From the IMG/VR virus record IMGVR_UViG_3300035002_000017, positions 1 to 48,395 of that record: a DNA stretch of 48,395 bases, one strand, 5' to 3'. How positions within the stretch are numbered: position 1 is the stretch's first letter; each line of letters starts with the position of its first letter. The DNA comes from a virus. Lineage: Duplodnaviria > Caudoviricetes. Position numbers and translations under genes: made by a program. Shown in pieces: positions 6,033 through 33,453 of the stretch. The notes under the pieces are model-generated. The model had not been told where the DNA came from. It saw only the letters and a list, made by a program, of their open reading frames with translations, and did no database searches.

Positions 6033-6716
6033 CTACCCCCAATTCCCCGCCGCCCCCGCACTCGGCAGGGCTTCGGTTCTCAGCACCCGCGTGGTGCCAA
6101 AGCAGGAAGTCACGCCCCCGGTGCCGTCCCTAAAAATCAGCACCTCCGATTCCACTTCGTGCCGCCTGCCGCCCCGGCGGTTGAGCACCCCGAAGCGGTC
6201 GGAATGGCGCTGGGTGGAACGTGACCGCAAGGCTTGGTGCCACTTTTCCAGCATCAGGCCCATTTCGCGGGTGTCGAGGGCAGAAGTCCAGCCCAGGCCC
6301 AACACGTCGGGCTTGGCAAGGCCCACCAGGTCCAAGTACGCGTCGTTGCAATCGGTAAGTTCCCCGGCCCCGTCCAAGACGAACCAGGGCCGGTCACTGA
6401 GCTCGTTCGTGGCCCGGAGGTTCACTGACAAGGCTTCCACGCGGGCGGCGAGGGCATCGGTTTTGGCTTCGTTGCGGACGACGGCATCTTTCAGGCTCCC
6501 ACCCCCGTTGGGCGTGACTTCCTTCACCACGCGCTCAACGAGTTCGGTAAGGCGTTCCAGCCGCGCCCCGGTGCGGTTCTGCCACCGGGCAAAGCACCAG
6601 GCTTTCAGGCGTTCGCGCCGCGCCCATGCCGCCGACAATAGGGCAACCGACAGGGGGGCGGAAAGCCATTTTAAGGCCGGGTGTACCGTGCCGATGGCAT
6701 CGAGGGCTTCTTTCAT
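6033..6716 (-). CDS. Membrane-anchored PAS-domain protein (TM - coiled coil - PAS/PAC)
   Basis: N-terminal hydrophobic helix, TPNGGGSLKD coiled coil, then WFVLDGAG..CNDAYLDLVGL...VLGLGW...FRDGTGGVTSCFG matching the PAS/PAC consensus; no output domain. Confidence 0.85.
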   Translation of the reverse strand: MKEALDAIGTVHPALKWLSAPLSVALLSAAWARRERLKAWCFARWQNRTGARLERLTELVERVVKEVTPNGGGSLKDAVVRNEAKTDALAARVEALSVNLRATNELSDRPWFVLDGAGELTDCNDAYLDLVGLAKPDVLGLGWTSALDTREMGLMLEKWHQALRSRSTQRHSDRFGVLNRRGGRRHEVESEVLIFRDGTGGVTSCFGTTRVLRTEALPSAGAAGNWG

Positions 6717-6779: not shown

Positions 6780-7172
6780 ATGGGCATGAACAAGAAACAA
6801 CGCGAACTAATTTTCAATAAATTCGGCGGTCGTTGCGCCTACTGCGGAACGCCACTCGAAAGGGGTTGGCACGTTGACGAACTCTTACCCGTCCGGCGAA
6901 ACAAAACCTACGACCGAACCCGGCGAAAGTGGGTGTGCGACGGCACTTGCCTACACCCCGAGCGGCTTACCATTGAGAATCAAATGCCCACTTGCGCCTC
7001 GTGCAACATCAATAAACACAGCATGAGCCTTGAGGAATTTCGTAGACTTATTTCCGGCTTCATTGTTTCGTTGAACCGGGATTCAGTCCAATACAAGGTT
7101 GCCAAACGCTACGGGCTGATTCAGGAGGAACTAAAGCCGGTTGTGTTCTACTTTGAACAGCAATCAACCTAA
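6780..7172 (+). CDS. HNH endonuclease
   Basis: KFGGRCAYCG...WHVD....ENQMPTCASCNINK; start may be ATG 6786. Confidence 0.9.
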   Translation: MGMNKKQRELIFNKFGGRCAYCGTPLERGWHVDELLPVRRNKTYDRTRRKWVCDGTCLHPERLTIENQMPTCASCNINKHSMSLEEFRRLISGFIVSLNRDSVQYKVAKRYGLIQEELKPVVFYFEQQST

Positions 7173-7236
7173 AGCGCCACCGCCGCCAGAATCACCGCCC
7201 CAACCCCACTCAGGAACCCGATTTTGAACCCCTGCC

Positions 7237-7623
7237 ATGAGCCAACCATTTCCTTTTTACCGCTACTCCGGCGACCGCCTGACTGAACCAGCCCTGAAGG
7301 GTGCGGTTTGTCGAGCGGTTCGGCGACCTGACGGCAAGTGCATCCGGGGCAAAAACGGGACGATGCTTGTCGAGTTTGAGGGCGGCGAGCAATGCACGGT
7401 TATTGGTCGCCTACTTCGGAAAATCCCTACCCCCGCTTCCACTCCACTTCCTGACCAGCGCCCGAATCCCCCCGTAAGCCGCCCCCACACCACCACCAAT
7501 CAGCGCCCCGACCGGCCCGAAAAAAGACCCTACAGCGGCACCACCCCCGACAGGGAGGGCAACGCCCCAGGCGTCTCCCGTTCCGCGCTTCCAGCCCCTT
7601 CGTTCGGCTTCTTTTTCGAGTGA
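7237..7623 (+). CDS. Hypothetical protein (globular first ~65 aa; tail overlaps antisense gene)
   Basis: YRYSGDRLTEPALKG..CRAVRRPDGKCIRGKNGTMLVEF looks protein-like; the Pro-rich tail overlaps 7411..7824 on the other strand. Confidence 0.55.
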   Translation: MSQPFPFYRYSGDRLTEPALKGAVCRAVRRPDGKCIRGKNGTMLVEFEGGEQCTVIGRLLRKIPTPASTPLPDQRPNPPVSRPHTTTNQRPDRPEKRPYSGTTPDREGNAPGVSRSALPAPSFGFFFE

Positions 7624-7824
7624 GGGCAGGGCTTCCCGCATCCCCCGCAGGGCACGGGTCGAGTCGGTGAGTTGGTTGTAGGCGCGGGCGAGTTCATGAT
7701 CGAGTTCAACGGTCAGGCGCTTACAGTCCTGTAGTTCGGCGGCGGGCGCGGATTGCGCGGTAGAGGGAATCCAGCTTGCCAGCGCGAGCAAGGCTGTCAG
7801 CGTAAAATTTCGCGTCTTTTTCAT
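7411..7824 (-). CDS. Putative spanin-like lysis protein (signal peptide, coiled coil, C-terminal glycine zipper)
   Basis: ATG 7824 MKKTRNFTLTALLALASWIPSTAQ; coiled coil; GGGAAVGSFFGPVGALIGGGVGAAYGG; overlaps the upstream gene by 104 nt. Confidence 0.55.
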   Translation of the reverse strand: MKKTRNFTLTALLALASWIPSTAQSAPAAELQDCKRLTVELDHELARAYNQLTDSTRALRGMREALPSLEKEAERRGWKRGTGDAWGVALPVGGGAAVGSFFGPVGALIGGGVGAAYGGIRALVRKWSGSGGRDFPK

Positions 7825-7972
7825 TTTGTTTTCGGGTTTGGTGTACGGATTCAGCGGCGGGGTCAATCGCGGATTCACGGGCAGAAAAACACGCCCGCAC
7901 GCCCAGGACGAGAAGGGCCAGGAGCGCGAAGGCCGAGGCCCAGCCGAGGATGGTTTTGGTTTTGGGGGTCAT
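7721..7972 (-). CDS. Putative i-spanin-like protein (N-terminal TM + coiled coil)
   Basis: ATG 7972 MTPKTKTILGWASAFALLALLVLGV then a charged helix; downstream of holin/endolysin. Confidence 0.55.
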   Translation of the reverse strand: MTPKTKTILGWASAFALLALLVLGVRACFSARESAIDPAAESVHQTRKQNEKDAKFYADSLARAGKLDSLYRAIRARRRTTGL

Positions 7973-8112: not shown

Positions 8113-8505
8113 TCATATCCATACCTGCATCATGCTTGTAATTTTCAGGTTCCGGTTACAGGTTTTGAAATTTTCAAGCTCCATAACCCACTCTTGCACC
8201 GGCAGGTACACCTTCCTGTCGTTGTAGGCCAGTACATCCCAACCAGTGCCGCGATTTTCTTTTTTGAAAACATACCGCATTAATGCCGGATAGGGCGTGT
8301 TGGGGTCAAACGGGAGGAAGCGCGGAGAGCAATTGAATCCCAACGAATGCACCAAATCACGCATTTCCCGCCCATACCACCCCGCGCCGGGCTTCACTTT
8401 CGAAGCCGCAATAACTTCGCATAGTGGCAGTCCGGTCAAGACCGCGATCAGCCCCTCAACCTCCCGTTCTTGCGGAGCTTTGATTAATTCAACTTCGTAC
8501 ACCAT
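8113..8505 (-). CDS. Hypothetical protein, possibly degenerate C39-peptidase-like fold
   Basis: 130 aa overlapping the endolysin stop; IAVLTG...WDVLAYNDRKVYLP spacing recalls C39-like proteins but the catalytic Cys/His are absent. Confidence 0.6.
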   Translation of the reverse strand: MVYEVELIKAPQEREVEGLIAVLTGLPLCEVIAASKVKPGAGWYGREMRDLVHSLGFNCSPRFLPFDPNTPYPALMRYVFKKENRGTGWDVLAYNDRKVYLPVQEWVMELENFKTCNRNLKITSMMQVWI

Positions 8506-8989
8506 TTAGTTGAACCGTGTTATTTGTCGGATACTTCACCGACCGCGAATCTTCCACCGTTTCAGCGTACCCCACGGTCACGAAAATCTTCCCCCGCCGC
8601 GAGGCGTGATCCAAGAGTGCCACCAACTGCTTTTCGGTTTCGGCACTCACCCCGACGAAGTTCTTTTTTCGGGTGCGACCCACCAAAATGCAGCCAGACG
8701 ACGAAGCGGCGGTGTTCCCCCGGTGAAAGCGAATGCCCTCGAATGCCGGAACCCTCAGCAGCAGCGGCAACCGCCGCCCAAAGGCATTCGACCAGTTCAT
8801 AATGACTTCGTAGCGCCCGGTCGGGATGGCGGTTTGGTGCTTGACTTTCCGGCCCCAGGTCAGGGGGTTGTCGGAGACAAGACCCCGGTCGAGGTCTTCA
8901 AGCGTCTGCGAAAAGAGTTTGCCGTTCACGCTCAGCGTTCCGAGGGTTGATTCGTCGGTGAGGGTGTCCCTCAGTAGCAAGAGTTCCAT
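8489..8989 (-). CDS. DUF5675-family protein, putative endolysin
   Basis: STLGTL...TLED...TAIPTGRY...LPLL..VP.FEGIRFHRGNT...SSGCILVG; directly downstream of the holin. Confidence 0.85.
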   Translation of the reverse strand: MELLLLRDTLTDESTLGTLSVNGKLFSQTLEDLDRGLVSDNPLTWGRKVKHQTAIPTGRYEVIMNWSNAFGRRLPLLLRVPAFEGIRFHRGNTAASSSGCILVGRTRKKNFVGVSAETEKQLVALLDHASRRGKIFVTVGYAETVEDSRSVKYPTNNTVQLNGVRS

Positions 8990-8992
8990 CCG

Positions 8993-9202
8993 TCAGGGGT
9001 GTTTAGCGGGCTTCCGTCGGCGGGGGTCTTTGGCCCCAAGCAACACCACCCCGGCCCCGGCCAGGATGACCACGAGCGTTGCTTTGTCGGCGGCGGCAAT
9101 CCGGTCGGTCTGCGCCGCGTAGAGCGCCCCGGCAATCAAGGCCAGGCCGCTGAGGGTGGTTTTCAGGTTCAGGAACAGGCGTTCCAATAGGGTTGGTTTC
9201 AT
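8993..9202 (-). CDS. Holin (two TM helices)
   Basis: 69 aa, NLKTTLSGLALIAGAL...VVILAGAGVVLLGAKD, basic C-terminus; adjacent to the endolysin. Confidence 0.8.
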   Translation of the reverse strand: MKPTLLERLFLNLKTTLSGLALIAGALYAAQTDRIAAADKATLVVILAGAGVVLLGAKDPRRRKPAKHP

Positions 9203-9225: not shown

Positions 9226-11787
9226 TTAAAACGCGGCCGTTGAAAGCCGGACTATCGTGCCGTTTAGTTTGATGTAGGGGATTCCGGTTGAGCCGACAAC
9301 GATTTCCTTTTCCGCTACGGCGGCATCCGTCGCGCTGGCGGGCGTGTAGCCCCGCGCCTGCACCCCCGCTACCTGACTAACCGCCGCCGTGGTGGTTGCC
9401 ACGTAGGGGCCGGGGAGCAAAGAAACCTGCGCTTCGGCCACACGGATGAAACTTGCCCCGTCCCCCGAGTAGGAGTTGGTGCCGTTGGCCGAGGCCGCAT
9501 AAATACCCGGCGCTCCGGTTGCGGGTGTCCAGCTTGTAATCGCCTCCAGCCGGACGCGATACCAGCCGCTGCCGAGGTTAACGATGTAGGGTGTGGCCGA
9601 CAAGCCCTGTGTGTTGCCCGCTGCCCCGGTCGAAAGGTTCACGAACGCGAACGGCACCACGCCCGCCTGCCAGTTAGCACCAATGCCCCCGGTGTTGATA
9701 AAAGCCCACGTCCGGCCTGTCCCCGCCTTCAGCGTGACCCAGAAATAGTATTTCGTGTTCGGCTGGTAGGCGATGTTCGCACCCGTAATGCCGTGCGTTC
9801 CTGTGGCGTTGTCCTCGGTGATTTTCCAGCCGTTTGCGCTGCCGTCGTAGAGCGTTTCGCCCGATGCCACCGCAGCCCGGATTTTCCCCCAACTGGCTGA
9901 ACTGAACGTGTTCGATTGCAGCAGTAGGTTTGTCCACTGCCCGATGGGAAGCGTCACCGGGTCGCTGATGATGGTCGAGTACACGCTTGGCGAAATGGCG
10001 GCGATGTACTGGTAGGAGGAAAGCGACGACGTGTTCTCGGTACGGTTGTTTCGGTGGAGCAGGTTGCTGTTGGAAATGTTGCTGTTCATGTCCACCCATA
10101 CGACCGAACACGAAGAAAGGGCTACGGAGTTCGTCCCGCTGTTCTGCGTCACACGGAGGTGATTGCCCGTAAGGGTCATGTTCGTATTGGCCGCCCCGGT
10201 GATGGTGTTGCGCATCCTAATCGCAACGCTTGGGTACATTCCTGCCGAACCGCCCGTTGCCCACCCCGCCGCGTAGGTCCAGTGAATGAACCGATTCGCG
10301 TCCATTGACGTGCCGACCGAGCCTTCCAGGCAGACGTGAGAATCCGCGTTGGAATCGAACTCGTTCTGCTGAATCACGTGGTTCATGCTGGTCGCATACC
10401 CCGTGATGTTGCCGCCCGCGTCGCTACTGGTTGCCTGCCGCTGGATATGAACGCCCGCCCCCAGAAACCCACTCATGGGGTTGCGCCCATTTCCGAAGAT
10501 TGAGTTGTCGATGATGCGCGTGAAGTGCGCCCCGGTCACGATGCCACCCGACGCGCAGACCCCGATTCGGCTGCGCTCAATCGAAAGCCGACAGCCATAG
10601 GAGTTCTGCCCCAACACGCCAACGCCGTCGCAAAACGTGATTTCGGATTCTTCGATGCGAATAATTGACTGGTACGAGTCGGTGTTTTGAACGCCCGCTA
10701 CGAGGATGTCCGGTCGCCAGAGTGAAGCAATGCCGTGGCCGTGTACGTCCTTGATGGTCAGTTGCCGGAACGTTGCGTACCACAGCCCTACCGTTTCAAT
10801 TGCCGCTCCCTGGGTGCCGTAGCCATACGCCTGCGCCCGCTTGATGTGAATGCCCTCAATATGGCTCATCATCTGAAACTGGTAGGGAGTCAGCGATGCT
10901 CCGTCAAGCCTTAATAGGGGCGTCCCGTCAGCGAAGGCAAACAGCAACACCGCCTTCTCCCGCCCCGCCCCGGTCAGACGCAAGCCCCGGTCGTAACCGT
11001 TGGTCTGGTAGGTCAGCGTGTAGGTAATTCGGTAGGTGCCGGGCGGAACATACAGGCTCAGAATTTTGCCGCTCGATTTGTAGGTGTCCAGCATTGCCTG
11101 GAACGCCTGCGTGTCGTCAGATACCCCGTCGCCGGTCGCTCCCGCCATTTGGGGCGTAAGCACGTCGGTTTTCCGCTCGAAATACGTCCCCGTTGGTCCG
11201 GCCCGGAAAAGCACGTTCAGCCCCGCCGTGGGGGCCGTGCCCGTCCGCCGCTCCCACACCGACCCGTCCCATTGCACCCGGCTTTCGGAGGCCGTAGTGA
11301 AGTCGGAAGCCGAGGACAAGAACCGCAGTTTGGGCGCAAGCAACCCGTCTGTTTGCCCGGCGGTGTACGCCCCGACCTGCGCGGCGGTCACCCCGTGCGG
11401 GTTGGACGTGTTGGCCGTGTGCGATGAAACCGCCGTAGCGTCTGCTTTCAGGTTCAGGGCCGCTTGTGTAGCGGTCGAAACCGGCTTGGCCGCGTCCGAT
11501 GTGTTGTCCACGCTTCCAAGCCCAAGTTGGGCTTTCGTGACCCCGTGCGGGTTGTCTGCCCGCGCTGAGTGAGCCGAAACCGCCTGACTTGCGGGTTGGT
11601 CATTGACAACAACAACCGGAAACGATCGCACCCGCACCGTGTCAGGAATCCGGGCCATGAAGGTCAGCGTCACCTGCTGAGGCCCCGGCGTGCGCAAGGT
11701 GTCCGTGCGGGGGGCGGGGAAGGTGATTTGGGTTTGGGCCTCGGCGAAAAGCGGCACAAAGCCCAGCAAAAAAAAGAAGCGCTTCAC
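9226..11787 (-). CDS. Fibre/spike protein: signal peptide, fibre repeats, pectate-lyase-like beta-helix, head-spike-fibre-like CBM
   Basis: GTG 11787 gives MKRFFFLLGFVPLFAEAQ; NPHGVTKAQLGLGSVDNTSD repeats; GATGDGVSDDTQAFQ...VPPGTY; TNLL.SNTF...W...GWYRV C-terminal domain. Confidence 0.85.
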   Translation of the reverse strand: MKRFFFLLGFVPLFAEAQTQITFPAPRTDTLRTPGPQQVTLTFMARIPDTVRVRSFPVVVVNDQPASQAVSAHSARADNPHGVTKAQLGLGSVDNTSDAAKPVSTATQAALNLKADATAVSSHTANTSNPHGVTAAQVGAYTAGQTDGLLAPKLRFLSSASDFTTASESRVQWDGSVWERRTGTAPTAGLNVLFRAGPTGTYFERKTDVLTPQMAGATGDGVSDDTQAFQAMLDTYKSSGKILSLYVPPGTYRITYTLTYQTNGYDRGLRLTGAGREKAVLLFAFADGTPLLRLDGASLTPYQFQMMSHIEGIHIKRAQAYGYGTQGAAIETVGLWYATFRQLTIKDVHGHGIASLWRPDILVAGVQNTDSYQSIIRIEESEITFCDGVGVLGQNSYGCRLSIERSRIGVCASGGIVTGAHFTRIIDNSIFGNGRNPMSGFLGAGVHIQRQATSSDAGGNITGYATSMNHVIQQNEFDSNADSHVCLEGSVGTSMDANRFIHWTYAAGWATGGSAGMYPSVAIRMRNTITGAANTNMTLTGNHLRVTQNSGTNSVALSSCSVVWVDMNSNISNSNLLHRNNRTENTSSLSSYQYIAAISPSVYSTIISDPVTLPIGQWTNLLLQSNTFSSASWGKIRAAVASGETLYDGSANGWKITEDNATGTHGITGANIAYQPNTKYYFWVTLKAGTGRTWAFINTGGIGANWQAGVVPFAFVNLSTGAAGNTQGLSATPYIVNLGSGWYRVRLEAITSWTPATGAPGIYAASANGTNSYSGDGASFIRVAEAQVSLLPGPYVATTTAAVSQVAGVQARGYTPASATDAAVAEKEIVVGSTGIPYIKLNGTIVRLSTAAF

Positions 11788-11924
11788 GTTGTTTTTTGAG
11801 TTGATTGTCATTAGTTTAGGCCCCGGAACGAAGGAACGCTCGTTGTCTTCACGCAACCTTTCAAAGCCATGTAACCGTCCGTCTTGCCAACCTACGCGGA
11901 GTGGCCTTTTCGAGACCTACTGTC

Positions 11925-12701: not shown

Positions 12702-15700
12702 TCAAAGCGTCGTTTTTCCGAGATACAGATTCCGCCCGTACAGCCGAATTTGGTCATTCAGCCCCGCGTACCTCACGCGGATGTCGAGCGTCGTGCCCTG
12801 GTAGTTCCACGGGTCAATCGCCCCGACGAGGATTTTCCCGTTTTTGACCACGGCCTTCACAATCAGCCGGTCGGCAACGGCGGGAATCGAAAGGCTTGGG
12901 TTGTAAGGCGGGCCGGCTTGGTAGGGCACATACCCATCCATCATGCTGTACTTGAACCCGCCCCATTCGTTGCCCTGCTTGGTTCTACGCCACGTTGCCC
13001 CGCCGTCCAAACTGAATTCCGGGGTCACGTACTGCTGTCCGTCCCCGTCGAAAATATCCGGGTGCTGGGCAATGCGCCACAGGCCCCGCAGGTAGCGTTC
13101 TTCGGAGTTTTTCCATTCCGCCACGCGGGGGGCGTTCCAAAGGCCCGTGCCTTTCGCGCCACTGAGGTACGCCAGCGGTGCCCAGTTTTCGGCCACGTCC
13201 GGGCGGAGTTTGTAGAACTTCCACAGCCCGTCCCGGTCGGTGTCCCCCATCCCGTCTTCGTGGTAGGGGGCGTTGAGGGGCACGACCGGCTGCGGCATCG
13301 TCGCGCGGGCGTATTCCACGTTCTGCACGCTGTGGTGCGCCCATGCCCCTTGCCGCTCCCAAAGCACCTGGTAGAAGTCCCAGAAGTCGTGGGGTTTGGA
13401 GAACCCCGGCCCGTAGGCAAAGCGCGTCTTGTGGTAGCCCGTTTCGGCAAAAAAGTCCTGTCCGGCCCCCCAGGCTGAATTGTGCGAAGCCCCTTGAAAG
13501 CCCACCTTGTGCGAGGCCGGAATGTTTCCCGTCCCCCGGTACTGCTTTAAGGGGTTCAGCATCTGATCGCGCTTGACGTTCTCCCAGGTCTGCGCGTTCA
13601 CCCCCGCTTCGGTGTGGGCGCGGGCTTCCAGGTTCACCCAGAACCGCCCCGCCGCCGTGATGTCGTTGAAGTGCAACCCCCCAATGGCATCGTTCAGGAC
13701 CGACAGGCGGATGTCGGCTTCTTCGTCCGCGTTGCGCGGCGGGTAGCCAAGCCCGCCCGTCGTAGCCCCCACGTACCGCGCCCCGGCTTCGGTCTGCTGA
13801 AGCACGTTATTGCCCATCATGCGGGCGCGGCGGGTGAAGGGCACGTTAGCCCCAATGTTGGCTTTGCCCGACGCGTTCAGGCCCCCCGAAAGCAATCCGT
13901 GTTCGTCGGTGTGGGTGATGCCGTAGTCCAACACCGACAGGGCGTTTTGCGCCCCTACGCCGCCGATGAACCATTCCGACGTAAGGCCCGTCGGGAAGGT
14001 GAATTTGGGCAGCCGGGCCAAATTCAGGTTGGGGGTTTCGTTGTCGGCCCCATCAAGCTCCGCCGTTGGGGCAAGGGCCGCGGAATTGGGTTGGGCGCGG
14101 GTGAGGATGGATACGTCGCCACTTGTGCCGCCGTAGAGGGCGTTGACGGTCAAAAGCGAAGAGTTTAGCGAATCGCCACCCGAAAATTTCACCGTCGCCA
14201 TGTAGGTGCCTACCCATCCCGTTCCCACCGCACTCAGCACGACACCGTAATCCGTGCCCGTCACTGCCCCGAACGGCCCGAGCGGAGCGCCAACTACCCG
14301 CATGGATGGGACGTTGTATTCAAGGAGGTAGCCGTTGTTGAGGTTGAAGTGAACCGTATCCGGCCCCGGCGGGCTGGTGTTCGTCCACTTTCGCAGCCGT
14401 GCCACGACCGGCGTCCGCGTACCCGCGTAGTCCACCCGGATGCGGGCGGAATCCGGCCAGGCGTTAAGCAAGGTGATGTTCAGCCGTTCGGTTGCCCCCG
14501 ACGGCACCGTCACTGACTGCTCGCTACTCCACCCCGAAGCCCCCGCCGTGCTGTTGACCGCCCGGACGCGGAACGTGATGACGCTTCCCGCCGCTTCGGT
14601 CACGGCGGGTTTAATCACCCGCGCGGCGGCGGGGAGTTGCTGCGAGGGCCCGAAGGCCCCCGAACCCACCTTCCGCTGAAGCTCGAAGTAACTCACGCCC
14701 GTCCCCGTGTGCGTCCATTCCACCCGGGTTACGCCCCCGCCCGTGGTTTCGTAGGCGACGGGAAGTAGCACGGGCGGCACCGGCACCGTGGGGGCTTCCA
14801 CGGCCACGCCCGTGAAGTCGTCCACCTGCCGAAGGTTCACTTGTTGGGTGGGGCCGCTGACCGAGTTCCACGCCGTGAAGTGCGCCGAAGGGTCCGGCCC
14901 CAGCATCGTGGAATAATTGTAAGTCACCGAAGCCACCGGGGCGCGGGGCGTTACGGCGTTGTTTGGGGCCGTGCAGTACTCGGTTTTGAGTTGCTGGAGG
15001 TAGGTCGAGGTTGCCGCCCAGTTCCAGCCCGCGACGGGGGAAATGTGAATCACCCACCCGCCTTTGTCGTAGAATTTTTTGTACTGCGAATAAATGTCCG
15101 ACGCATTCTCGTAGTTCCACGGCGACGGCAGCAGCGACACGTCCTGCGGGTCAACCTCAATGGCCGAGTACTTCCCCGGCCCAAACGTCCCCGGCACCAA
15201 ATCGCCAATCAGTAGCTTGTGGTTGGGAAACTGGTGAGGGTAGTCCCCGGCCGAGGAGTACAGCCCGTCCATGTCGCGCAGCAGGTAGGCGACGTTGGCC
15301 GTACCAAGACCGATGATGAACTGGAAATTCACCCCCACGTCGGCGAAATAGCCCACGAAGGGAATGTTGGGGGCGGCGGACTTGACCCCCGCCCGCATTT
15401 CATCCAGGAAGAACTTCCACCGACCCAGCCGCCAGCGCATCCAATCCCGGCGGGGGTTGCTGTTGATGTCGAAAAAATGCGCCGGGCCGGTGTCCAGGGG
15501 CGTGACCCACCCGACGGCCGAAAACGAGGCGTGAGCCGTACCCCAGGCGCTGTTGAGGGCCGCGACGGTGCCGTACTTGGCCTCCAGCCACCCGCGCCAA
15601 TTCGTGAGCGCCGCGGCCGAAAAGTCGCTGTAATGCCCCGAAAAGGGATTGTAGGCGTAATTGAATTCCCCGCCGTTGCCCAGGGCGGGCTGCAGGCTAA

Positions 15701-17048
15701 TCAGCGTCCCGTCGTCGTGGTAGGGCTTCACTGCCGCCGCCAGCGCCGCCCAGAACGTGCGGGCTGCCGTCATCGCGACCGCCGACGAAGGCGAAGGCGC
15801 GACGTGGGCGTGGTTGACGACCCAGTTGCCTTCCCACAGGTACAAACTCCCGTCCTGGTAGCGGATGCAATCCGCATCCGGCCAATAGGCCGAATAGTCC
15901 TGCGGCGTGGCGTCGTTGTAGCGCTTGCGCACCATCAGCACGTTCACTTCCGCCTTCCAGCCCAAATCCTTGACGTACTGCAAGGCACTCAGCAGGGTAT
16001 CGAACTTATAGGCTTTGTCCGTGCCTTGTAGTTCGACCCAGCGAAGCAGGAAGTTCACCCCCGTAATGGGCTTGCCCAACAGGTTCCCCGCAATCCACGT
16101 CCTGAGGTTGCCCTCGAAGGGAATGTTGTAGAGCAGTTGCCGGGTCGGGGTGGTGACGACCACCGGCGCACTAGGAATCGTTACCTCGACGGCGGGCGAA
16201 AACGGCCCCGTCCCCCGGCTGTTCACGCCCCGCACCCGGTAATAGACCTTCGTCCCGGCGGGCAGACCCGACAGGTTGTCGGGGTAGGTCAGCGCGGCCG
16301 GGTTGTCGGTCGGCAGGATGCCCCAGGCATTGGCCCCGATGCTCCGGTGTAGCTCGTATTCGGTCGCCAGGGCCGCAACCGACCAGGACAGGTAGCTTTG
16401 CGCCCCCGATAGGTTTGCCGTCAGGGTAGGGGCAGCGGGAAGCCCCGACGGCAAATCAAAATTTGTGACGTAGCCATCAATCCGGCCCCATTGGGCGGTG
16501 CCGTCGAAATTGCGCAGGTACTCGAATTTCTTCGAAGCCGCCTTGTCCACGAAAAAGTCCCCGTGCTTGCCGGGGTCGGTCGAGTGAATCGGGGCCGCAG
16601 AAACCGCCCGGAGGCCGATTTTGGCCGCGTCAATCCGCCGCCCGTCCCCCTTCGTTGCCGGGTTGCCCGAATAAGCTTGCACCCAGCCGGGGTCGGAGTC
16701 GGATAGTTCCGGGGGCAGGTACCCACCGGGGTTTTTGTAGTTGAGGCTGGAAGTGACGTTGAGGTTGCGTATGGCCCCGTCCGCGCCGTTTCGGATGTAC
16801 TGCGACAAGTCCATCGCCCCGCCGCCGGTCAACAGCGAATCCACCCCGAACGGGTCGCGGGCGTAGAGCTTGCCGTTGGTTGCGCGGTACCAGCGGTCGT
16901 AAATTACCCCACCGACGATTTCACCCCGCGCCGTGCCGGGGTCGCCGCGCTTGACCAAAAGCTGATCCACGCGGGATTTGCCGGTGGTTTGAGCCTGCGC
17001 CCCGCACAGCGCCCCCAACCCCAACAGGAGAAAAAGGAAACGTTTCAT
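12702..17048 (-). CDS. Large signal-peptide protein: FN3 - GH42/GH14-like glycoside hydrolase - FN3 - unknown C-terminal domain
   Basis: MKRFLFLLLGLGALCGAQAQ; FN3 motifs (YYRVRGVNSRGTGPFS; FRVRAVNSTAGASGWS); WRGWLEAKYGTVAALNSAWGT...RRDWMRWR (GH42-like); LGNGGEFNY (beta-amylase-like). Confidence 0.85.
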   Translation of the reverse strand: MKRFLFLLLGLGALCGAQAQTTGKSRVDQLLVKRGDPGTARGEIVGGVIYDRWYRATNGKLYARDPFGVDSLLTGGGAMDLSQYIRNGADGAIRNLNVTSSLNYKNPGGYLPPELSDSDPGWVQAYSGNPATKGDGRRIDAAKIGLRAVSAAPIHSTDPGKHGDFFVDKAASKKFEYLRNFDGTAQWGRIDGYVTNFDLPSGLPAAPTLTANLSGAQSYLSWSVAALATEYELHRSIGANAWGILPTDNPAALTYPDNLSGLPAGTKVYYRVRGVNSRGTGPFSPAVEVTIPSAPVVVTTPTRQLLYNIPFEGNLRTWIAGNLLGKPITGVNFLLRWVELQGTDKAYKFDTLLSALQYVKDLGWKAEVNVLMVRKRYNDATPQDYSAYWPDADCIRYQDGSLYLWEGNWVVNHAHVAPSPSSAVAMTAARTFWAALAAAVKPYHDDGTLISLQPALGNGGEFNYAYNPFSGHYSDFSAAALTNWRGWLEAKYGTVAALNSAWGTAHASFSAVGWVTPLDTGPAHFFDINSNPRRDWMRWRLGRWKFFLDEMRAGVKSAAPNIPFVGYFADVGVNFQFIIGLGTANVAYLLRDMDGLYSSAGDYPHQFPNHKLLIGDLVPGTFGPGKYSAIEVDPQDVSLLPSPWNYENASDIYSQYKKFYDKGGWVIHISPVAGWNWAATSTYLQQLKTEYCTAPNNAVTPRAPVASVTYNYSTMLGPDPSAHFTAWNSVSGPTQQVNLRQVDDFTGVAVEAPTVPVPPVLLPVAYETTGGGVTRVEWTHTGTGVSYFELQRKVGSGAFGPSQQLPAAARVIKPAVTEAAGSVITFRVRAVNSTAGASGWSSEQSVTVPSGATERLNITLLNAWPDSARIRVDYAGTRTPVVARLRKWTNTSPPGPDTVHFNLNNGYLLEYNVPSMRVVGAPLGPFGAVTGTDYGVVLSAVGTGWVGTYMATVKFSGGDSLNSSLLTVNALYGGTSGDVSILTRAQPNSAALAPTAELDGADNETPNLNLARLPKFTFPTGLTSEWFIGGVGAQNALSVLDYGITHTDEHGLLSGGLNASGKANIGANVPFTRRARMMGNNVLQQTEAGARYVGATTGGLGYPPRNADEEADIRLSVLNDAIGGLHFNDITAAGRFWVNLEARAHTEAGVNAQTWENVKRDQMLNPLKQYRGTGNIPASHKVGFQGASHNSAWGAGQDFFAETGYHKTRFAYGPGFSKPHDFWDFYQVLWERQGAWAHHSVQNVEYARATMPQPVVPLNAPYHEDGMGDTDRDGLWKFYKLRPDVAENWAPLAYLSGAKGTGLWNAPRVAEWKNSEERYLRGLWRIAQHPDIFDGDGQQYVTPEFSLDGGATWRRTKQGNEWGGFKYSMMDGYVPYQAGPPYNPSLSIPAVADRLIVKAVVKNGKILVGAIDPWNYQGTTLDIRVRYAGLNDQIRLYGRNLYLGKTTL

Positions 17049-31769: not shown

Positions 31770-32552
31770 TTAGCGCATCGCCGCCGCTTGCGGCAGGTTC
31801 ACCACGGGCGGGGCACTGCGCGGCATCGGCACAAACCCCGCCTTTTCAAGCATCCGCCGCACCCCGTCAACCCCGCGCTGGGTAAAGACGGTTTTCCGGC
31901 CCACCTGAACGCCTTCCTTCGGGTGTGTCCATGTGGTTTCAATCACTTTGCACCAACCCTCATCGATAAACCGCTGGTAGGGCTGGTTCCAGTCGTTGCG
32001 CATCAACACGCCCCGCGAACGCAGGAAGTCGAACAGGTGATTTTGCCCCATGCCCCGAAAGGCCAACACCTTCGCCATTTCCCGGACGCTCATCAGGTTT
32101 TCCGAACTCATCGCCCGTTCGTAGAAGTCGGCTTTGGGTTGCAACACTTCCACCGCTGCGGCCAGCCGTTCCCGTTCTTCCGTTGCCGCAACCAATTCCC
32201 GAAGGGCTTCCAGGTACGTTTGCGGCACGGCGGGCTTCTGGCTTTGCAGTTGCCGCTGTGCTTCGTTGAAGGCGTTGATGAACTCGACTTTGAAGGCGGC
32301 GGCTTTCTTGCCGGTGAAGCCCATCACCAGAAAAGCAAAGCCGTCTTTTGTGATCACGTATTCGGGCCGGGCCTCCCCCTTGCTGTCAACATATTCAACC
32401 AATCCAAAATTGGATGCGTTGAAATCGGCGGGGCATTCAAGATTCTGAATTGCCCGCAAAACGTGCGCGTGTTGCTTGCCGAACTTTTCGGCGACAAGCC
32501 GCGAGGTCGTTACGGTCTGACCGTCCCGAACCAAGACAAGTTCCGTGTTCAT
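31770..32552 (-). CDS. Rha-family regulator fused to a KilAC/ANT antirepressor domain
   Basis: TTSRLVAEKFGKQH.HVLRAI...ITKDGFAFLVMGFTGKKAA.FK; PQTY.EALR...PKADFY...GQNHLF.FLR...NQPYQRFID.G. Confidence 0.92.
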   Translation of the reverse strand: MNTELVLVRDGQTVTTSRLVAEKFGKQHAHVLRAIQNLECPADFNASNFGLVEYVDSKGEARPEYVITKDGFAFLVMGFTGKKAAAFKVEFINAFNEAQRQLQSQKPAVPQTYLEALRELVAATEERERLAAAVEVLQPKADFYERAMSSENLMSVREMAKVLAFRGMGQNHLFDFLRSRGVLMRNDWNQPYQRFIDEGWCKVIETTWTHPKEGVQVGRKTVFTQRGVDGVRRMLEKAGFVPMPRSAPPVVNLPQAAAMR

Positions 32553-33307
32553 GCCTGGGAGGAAAGAAAGAACGAGGTTGCAAATTCGTGTACGCGCGTC
32601 AGGTAGCCGTAGCGCTTTGCTACGTCAATGTAGTTTTCTCCCACTTCACGGCGGGCACTGAGTATGCCAATGTTGTAGGCGTGTCCGAAGCTGCTCCAAA
32701 AACGTTCCCATAGCCATTCCGGGGTTTTGTGCGGGTGCGCTGCCAGGTGCGCGTTGAAGCAAGCAAATACCGCTTGTCGCATTTCGTTCACAGGCCGGGA
32801 ATCAGGCGAACCCGGCGGCGGGAGTTGGGCGCGAAGGGCGGCGAGTTCGGCGGCGTGGTGGTATTCGATTGCGTCGATTTTCCGGGAAAGGGCCTTAACC
32901 TGACGAGCAAGGGCGGAGTTTCCGGCCTGTTCGCGTTGGCTTTGCGCCCACTTTTCCACGGCGATAAAGTACTGACGCACTTTCCGGCCCTGTTCGGTGC
33001 GCTGAATCATGGCAATTTCCTTCGCGCAGTCGAGAAGCAAGGCGTAGTCGTCAAGGACTTCGCGTTCCCCTCCGGTAGGTGTATGATCAATTCTGATCAA
33101 ACGCTCGTAATCAGTGTTTTCAACGAATCCGTATGCAAACATTCGCTTCATCCACGGATCGAACCTGGTTTTAATGCCCAGGTAGTCATACAGGCTTCGC
33201 GCCGATGTGACTTCTTCGTTCCGGCAATTCAGCGTGACAGGCGGGAATCCATCGGATTCGTTTATCCCCGGCGGGGATAGGGTAAGGTTTTTAAGTTTGG
33301 TAACCAT
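32549..33307 (-). CDS. AntA/AntB-family antirepressor
   Basis: ATG 33307; SARSLYDYLGIKTRF..W..R...YGFVEN.DY...DYAL.LDCAKEIAMIQRTEQG.KVRQYFI.VEK. Confidence 0.9.
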   Translation of the reverse strand: MVTKLKNLTLSPPGINESDGFPPVTLNCRNEEVTSARSLYDYLGIKTRFDPWMKRMFAYGFVENTDYERLIRIDHTPTGGEREVLDDYALLLDCAKEIAMIQRTEQGRKVRQYFIAVEKWAQSQREQAGNSALARQVKALSRKIDAIEYHHAAELAALRAQLPPPGSPDSRPVNEMRQAVFACFNAHLAAHPHKTPEWLWERFWSSFGHAYNIGILSARREVGENYIDVAKRYGYLTRVHEFATSFFLSSQA

Positions 33308-33354
33308 GACTTTGACAGTTTTTTGCTCAGAATGCGACCTTTCGGCTGAGCGTG

Positions 33355-33453
33355 AAAAAGAAAAAACGGCGTCGCACCGCCCCGCTGTCAAAGTCCGTTA
33401 CCGGGAGCTTCCTACGGCCATTACAGCCGCAGGACGGGAGTGCAACGCCGTTT
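33355..33453 (-). ncRNA. Candidate c4/CI-like antisense RNA
   Basis: 14-bp closing stem (33440-33453 with 33364-33377), 9-bp inner hairpin, unpaired GACUUUGACAG complementary to sites at 33308 and 33539, U-tract at the 3' end. Confidence 0.6.

Follow-up and report, generated by a model that had tools for sequence, protein, structure and literature searches.

The timing of lysis determines burst size and phage fitness. It is generally regarded as fixed by the holin; the textbook exception is lysis inhibition in T4, which responds to a periplasmic signal. The globular domain of the T4 holin T is GAF-like and binds the antiholin RI. One-helix lysis proteins have been described in phages of actinobacterial hosts: LysF1b (mycobacteriophages Girr and NormanBulbieJr) and LysA2b (D29 gp30) are proteins of 88-150 aa without a globular domain, with one N-terminal N-out/C-in helix followed by basic residues, a long cytoplasmic helix and a 2-TM holin-like gene alongside (PMC13056207). 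Both proteins are needed for efficient lysis and are proposed to activate a 2-TM partner (PMC13056207; 10.64898/2026.08.27.747656), and their lysis role was assigned by genetic work (PMC13056207). LysA2b of D29 is functional though encoded far from the lysins (10.64898/2026.08.27.747656), so that a gene at some distance from the cassette may still act in lysis. The topology described for LysZ (PMC13123898) is opposite to that of LysF1b and LysA2b (PMC13056207). In sensor-effector proteins, a heptad-dependent linker length is described as a mark of signal-carrying coiled coils, and in YF1 linkers of 7n+1 invert the response (PMC6798134).

We analysed a 48.4-kb stretch of DNA (the window, meaning the whole stretch) from an HK97-type tailed phage, in which the terminase, portal, capsid, tape measure and tail genes all lie on the minus strand. 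The gene P0001 (6033..6716, minus strand, ATG start) encodes a 227-aa protein with the layout TM-coiled coil/NGG hinge-PAS. Its parts, all on the minus strand, are a single membrane helix predicted from hydropathy and charge to be N-out/C-in (residues 14-32, 6621..6677), a helix-break-helix hinge delimited by a match to phrog_9869, an AlphaFold2 model and conservation (residues 63-81, 6474..6530), a coiled-coil linker between hinge and PAS, recognised by a modelled helix, a 34+7n spacing and a heptad hydrophobic pattern (residues 75-105, 6402..6494), and a PAS/PAC domain without LOV motif, supported by Pfam, Foldseek and VIA-align (residues 107-216, 6069..6398). P0001 resembles LysF1b and LysA2b in a predicted N-terminal helix followed by basic residues and a predicted long cytoplasmic helix; a candidate 2-TM holin gene in its surroundings would fit the partner gene by anatomy. 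It is set apart from them by its length, its PAS domain, its NGG-type hinge, the lack of a DUF2746 match and the spanin-like genes nearby. T4 T is also described as single-pass with a globular regulatory domain (PMC13056207). The T domain is periplasmic and reads superinfection, whereas the PAS domain of P0001 is predicted to be cytoplasmic. With PAS/LOV sensor histidine kinases (YF1, BvgS, the DosP PAS) P0001 has the PAS fold and a heptad-quantised linker in common; unlike them it has no catalytic domain and no LOV motif, and its linker runs towards the hinge and membrane helix at the N-terminus. Our tentative reading is that P0001 regulates phage lysis through a membrane/hinge module under the control of a cytoplasmic PAS input; we give this reading slightly less than an even chance.

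P0001 is a real gene. Residues 107-211 match Pfam PAS_4 (E 1e-5; 26.2 bits against a cutoff of 23.1), and the Pfam scan gave no further domain-family match. In an AlphaFold2 model built from an 89-row alignment (pLDDT 87.7, pTM 0.60), residues 2-67 form a helix, 68-74 a loop that coincides with the NGG motif, 75-105 a second helix and 111-216 the complete five-stranded sheet of a PAS domain. Structure searches, proposed as a check in an earlier reading of this DNA (the sequence-only reading), returned PAS folds with both Foldseek and VIA-align, the best with a Z of 14.2 and an rmsd of 2.4 over 106 aligned residues. An artefact or shadow ORF was ruled out by the Pfam match, the fold and the family. 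The sequence-only reading had described a coiled coil with TPNGGGSLKD and a complete PAS domain without kinase or DNA-binding part, and both descriptions hold: the motif is present in the translation of ORF 6033-6716, with its NGG loop between the two modelled helices, and the domain search found no DHp/HATPase, DNA-binding part or other catalytic output. The membrane helix it had noted is indeed predicted, but is weak in P0001, where its mean Kyte-Doolittle value of 1.28 falls below the family median (1.87), with one Lys/Arg in the preceding 15 residues and five after it. The phrog_9869 profile matches residues 51-93 (E 3e-5), that is, the TM-distal coiled coil and the NGG hinge.

P0001 had been placed at the end of a lysis cassette. 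It does lie downstream of holin-, endolysin- and spanin-like genes, but an HNH endonuclease gene (6780..7172, plus strand, family match; GC 0.50) and a small plus-strand ORF from 7237 intervene. The cassette, on the minus strand, consists of a candidate 2-TM holin of 69 aa (8993..9202), a candidate endolysin of the DUF5675 family (8489..8989), an i-spanin-like ORF with an N-terminal TM and then a charged helix (7721..7972, start picked by eye) and a second spanin-like ORF with a signal-like N-terminus and a Gly-rich hydrophobic C-terminus (7411..7824). Among these genes the endolysin candidate alone has a family match; the holin candidate and both spanin-like ORFs, which are named from their anatomy, matched no lysis family in Pfam or PHROG. 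For the holin candidate we also found no distant relative, no match to the marine 2-TM family and no similarity to D29 gp11 or Coco12 gp32. Relatives of DUF5675 occur in Bacteroides and crAss-like phages, the crAss-like ones being annotated as L,D-transpeptidase/carboxypeptidase, and from these relatives and the spanin-like pair we infer a Gram-negative host, possibly of the Bacteroidota. DUF5675 is also found near the PAS gene in locus L127, and in the endolysin position it possibly represents an uncharacterised endolysin class.

The GC content of P0001 (0.654) resembles that of the holin (0.648) and capsid (0.632) genes, unlike the 0.50-0.51 of the opposite-strand HNH gene and of a 130-aa ORF (8113-8505, minus strand; no Pfam/PHROG match) with the endolysin candidate on one side and the spanin-like genes on the other. 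P0001 is therefore probably a gene of the late operon, and the low-GC genes are likely to be later insertions. The exact protein was also present on a 2.6-Mb contig and a variant with three substitutions on a 257-kb contig, which identifies the source as a prophage. Several other features of the window are recorded here. A hydrophobic ORF of 26 codons (7169-7249, minus strand), stranded between the two plus-strand inserts, looks like the residual C-terminal membrane segment of a spanin-like gene; in an unrelated phage (L126:4011-4610) an HNH gene likewise splits spanin from PAS gene. The promoter/terminator scan found one terminator-like site (9249-9234), against 5.8 in shuffles. Two tandem Ant/Rha-like antirepressor genes (31770-33391, minus strand) occupy a lower-GC stretch in the portal-terminase interval, and two tail-region proteins of 1448 and 876 aa (12702-17048 and 9226-11856, minus strand) have signal-peptide-like starts, the shorter one with a pectate-lyase-like domain.

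Single-sequence searches with P0001 were nearly empty, yielding one relative besides the near-identical copy, two PAS-less loci and one weak cultured-phage match, and its family was visible only through alignment-based queries and exhaustive search. The latter returned 858 clusters at E 0.001, cellular sensors among them. Among the best 149 of these (self-match aside), 117 were shorter than 400 aa; 101 scored on the hinge profile, and most of the remaining 16 short clusters had a variant hinge by eye. Seven of the ten matches listed by the ESM Atlas were clusters of 183-229-aa PAS proteins, 99-100% viral and with 65 to 1142 members each. The family comprises more than 100 clusters at 50% identity. 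The motif was present in 250 of 255 fetched loci, 121 with PAS and 129 without; the PAS-bearing loci, some of whose contigs were fetched twice, fall into 45 clades when grouped at 40% identity. Searches with three queries found the full TM-hinge-PAS layout in no cultured phage, and the literature, as covered thinly for subscription journals, gave no report of a PAS-bearing phage lysis protein. This is a large, phage-restricted and apparently undescribed family.

The most conserved part of the family is the hinge, with the consensus I-x-x-E-x-x-P-N-G-G-x-S-L-x-D and at least 90% conservation of N70, G71, G72, S74 and D77 over 116 alignment rows. The 107 rows with a recognisable motif were used for helix and charge counts: in 84 a hydrophobic window scored 1.5 or higher, and Lys/Arg were commoner after the helix than before it in 101, equal in 6 and reversed in none. 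Hydropathy and this positive-inside charge bias predict an N-out/C-in topology, and thereby a cytoplasmic PAS domain. The distance from the hinge to the PAS core glycine was 34, 41, 48, 55 or 62 (34+7n) in 110 of the 126 sequences that remained after 37 of 163 had been dropped for pattern failure, and one more in another 12; an alignment-based count gave 104/116. The distance between membrane helix and hinge varied freely (26-107). Hydrophobic residues recur at heptad intervals on both sides of the hinge, and the protein would be a parallel dimer. The 12 plus-one members may have an inverted response or a mis-anchored spacing. After the PAS domain, the tail has a median of 5 residues (163 sequences).

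The LOV motif GxNCRFLQ with its reactive Cys occurred in 0/116 rows, which rules out a LOV photoreceptor. No His or Cys reached 50% conservation in the 116-row alignment, so that no cofactor is indicated, and the conserved PAS residues are those of the core (G118, N124, W143 and G207). Two members, P0131 and P0134, carry a C-terminal receiver (REC) domain in addition to TM-hinge-PAS, and the phosphorylation residues of these receivers (acidic pair, Asp, Thr, Lys) are intact. Together these features suggest an input role for PAS and receiver, with the membrane/hinge module as the likely output. P0001 is therefore probably not the "output-less" sensor that it had been called.

A coiled-coil/PAS dimer whose role is structural only would show heptad spacing between hinge and PAS as well. 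P0001 could be a lysis accessory protein in which a ligand-free PAS domain senses nothing and serves as a cap for dimerisation or stability, so that the trigger threshold is hard-wired. The neighbourhood and module evidence supports such a cap as well as it supports a gated regulator, conservation is confined to the PAS core with no cofactor motif, and a continuous coiled-coil dimer would likewise yield the 7n spacing. However, 129 of the 250 motif loci are without PAS, indicating that PAS is not needed for the fold, and the receiver fusions with intact phosphorylation residues point to a regulated input in at least some members. On balance we consider a purely structural PAS unlikely.

The resemblance of PAS plus coiled coil to the input half of a membrane sensor kinase bears on another proposal, that P0001 is a decoy or modulator which heterodimerises with host PAS kinases or cyclases and rewires host signalling; the sequence-only reading had suggested a decoy that poisons host PAS kinases. 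The receiver fusions could then serve as phosphate sinks, and many clades are unlinked to lysis genes. On a PAS tree of 67 family and 32 cellular sequences (low support), however, family and cellular domains were split, with 2 label changes against a shuffled minimum of 22, so that the family PAS domains do not track host paralogues. The hinge, the best conserved part, was absent from 32/32 long cellular sensors tested and is common to PAS-less lysis-region proteins, and the fetched loci held no second PAS protein. We favour a decoy less than gated lysis and regard it as improbable, the least credible of the readings weighed here.

The membrane/hinge module also exists without PAS. Proteins of phrog_9869 and phrog_15431, represented by Arthrobacter phage Laroye gp72 and Streptomyces phage mu1/6 gp52, have the same TM and NGG-hinge module by clear homology and lie in lysis cassettes but, unlike P0001, carry no PAS; "holin" is an annotation label here, Laroye gp72 being a holin in RefSeq and a membrane protein in GenBank. 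Laroye gp72 matched the family by hhalign (95%, E 2e-8), and the profiles of PAS-bearing and PAS-less modules matched at 99.6%. The gene for mu1/6 gp52 directly follows endolysin and holin, and that of another PAS-less protein (L001) precedes an M23 peptidase. These proteins confirm the statement of the sequence-only reading that NGG-type motifs occur in small lysis-region membrane proteins. PAS-less module proteins are 63-250 aa long, and 11 of 17 PAS-less loci, with neighbours chosen by eye, had a lysis-family neighbour.

We compared the module with DUF2746, the family of LysF1b and LysA2b. The profile of the family N-terminus matched a 13-sequence LysF1b/DUF2746 profile at 75% (E 2.5e-5) with the helix-break motifs in register, against 0.5% for a reversed control, at most 2.9% for shuffled ones and 1.9% for i-spanins. 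The LysF1b profile itself, however, reached 15% with unrelated i-spanins (score 25.3 versus 28.8), D29 gp30 alone matched the family profile at 7%, and P0001 had no match to the DUF2746 profile up to E 10, whereas 4/4 LysF1b-like controls did match. Because of the i-spanin match and the missing DUF2746 match, homology of the module to LysF1b/DUF2746 is suggestive only. P0001 appears LysF1b-like by anatomy and context, and the 75% profile match leaves its membership of DUF2746 suggestive only.

The gene neighbourhoods of the 45 PAS-bearing clades were scanned in one or two representatives per clade, using script-called genes and covering most of the plausible neighbours. In 11/45 clades a peptidoglycan-hydrolase match lay near the PAS gene (~2.2 kb), of the types GH108, GH24, GH19, M15, CHAP-type, DUF5675, NlpC/P60 and peptidoglycan-binding domain, the last three being weaker assignments. 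A further 5/45 had a spanin match within ~2.2 kb, giving 16/45 lysis-linked clades. Against a chance share of 12.8%, the part of the 48.4-kb window within 2.2 kb of its own cassette, 16/45 has a p of 8e-5 and 11/45 a p of 0.02, with clades that are not fully independent. On the PAS tree the lysis-adjacent clades are scattered, with 13 changes in 42 and a mean of 13.0 after shuffling. Five more clades, the largest among them, had an adjoining small 2-TM gene with no or weak family match; in the largest clade a conserved 70-aa 2-TM gene directly followed the PAS gene in 41/42 loci. This two-helix gene (L029:2820-3026 and relatives) has no family match and is a candidate for a new holin; the gene after it is often protease-like or a ribonucleotide reductase.

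No lysis sign was seen in the flanks of 19/45 clades, L239 among them having been judged by reading and not by the scan, and in 4/45 the loci were too short to judge. Examples of unlinked copies are one flanked by NrdJ and Mom, one ahead of a T4-type capsid gene and one beside an integrase. One clade of large phages (L008, L011, L025, L031, L032, L053, L063) had no lysis gene nearby; its PAS gene has a Mom-like DNA modification gene on one side and, on the other, a class II ribonucleotide reductase or the helicase that precedes it. The lysis linkage of homologues, which the sequence-only reading had put forward as a check, is thus enriched yet partial.

The unlinked clades leave room for a late membrane protein that acts outside lysis, for instance by tethering assembly or packaging to the membrane or in superinfection exclusion. 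Several clades adjoin terminase, capsid or head-closure genes (L038, L052, L060, L062, L126, L131, L191, L197, L210), and some LysF1b-like genes are annotated as minor tail protein. In L210 the PAS gene directly precedes the small and large terminase genes, which we take to be the position of the T7 holin. Three of these loci (L038, L126, L131), however, also hold spanin or endolysin genes, and lysis cassettes often adjoin terminase or tail genes. Genetic work places LysF1b and LysA2b in lysis (PMC13056207). We hold a non-lysis late role to be quite unlikely.

Two Cellulophaga phage proteins matched P0001 by fold. Their assignment to phi18:3 gp090 and phi19:1 gp108, which lie in lysis regions (for phi18:3, as judged from its first 50 kb), is by length alone, and they showed no profile similarity to the family (0.4%). 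These one-helix proteins (L123:39102-39620 in phi18:3, L125:6203-6925 in phi19:1) have a PAS-like fold and no NGG hinge, and are possibly analogues, an independent version of the same design. Both phages are cultured, which makes them a tractable test system.

We return to P0001 as a lysis regulator gated from the cytoplasm. The protein would form a dimer in the membrane, N-out/C-in, with PAS in the cytoplasm. A small ligand, redox or a protein partner may change the state of the PAS domain, which would twist the coiled-coil linker and shift the triggering time. The module would act like LysF1b/LysA2b, either by activating the 2-TM holin (8993-9202 in the window) or by forming the lesion itself, and in P0131 and P0134 host kinases would provide a further input by phosphorylating the receiver domain. 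In support we count the occurrence of the module alone in lysis cassettes, the clade linkage, the 2-TM neighbours in 41/42 loci, the charge bias, the heptad spacing and the receiver fusions; against it stand the 19/45 unlinked clades, the lack of a DUF2746 match and of a cofactor motif, and the HNH gene between P0001 and the cassette. The earlier proposal of a holin-like, signal-gated protein thus survives in part: the module common to PAS-less cassette proteins, the predicted cytoplasmic PAS and the heptad spacing agree with it, but the linkage is partial and no ligand or cofactor motif was found in the family alignment. The wider proposition, that a widespread class of phages reads a cytoplasmic signal via PAS, and some also the host phosphorelay via a receiver, to tune lysis time to host physiology through a phased coiled coil and a holin-activating module, is possible but doubtful.

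If gated lysis is the true role, many unrelated environmental phages would have a lysis module connected to a sensor in the cytoplasm, and one-helix lysis regulators, recently characterised, would extend beyond actinobacteria. The heptad rule makes the mechanism testable through linker-length variants, and the family would give direct molecular access to the way in which phages match lysis to the state of the host.
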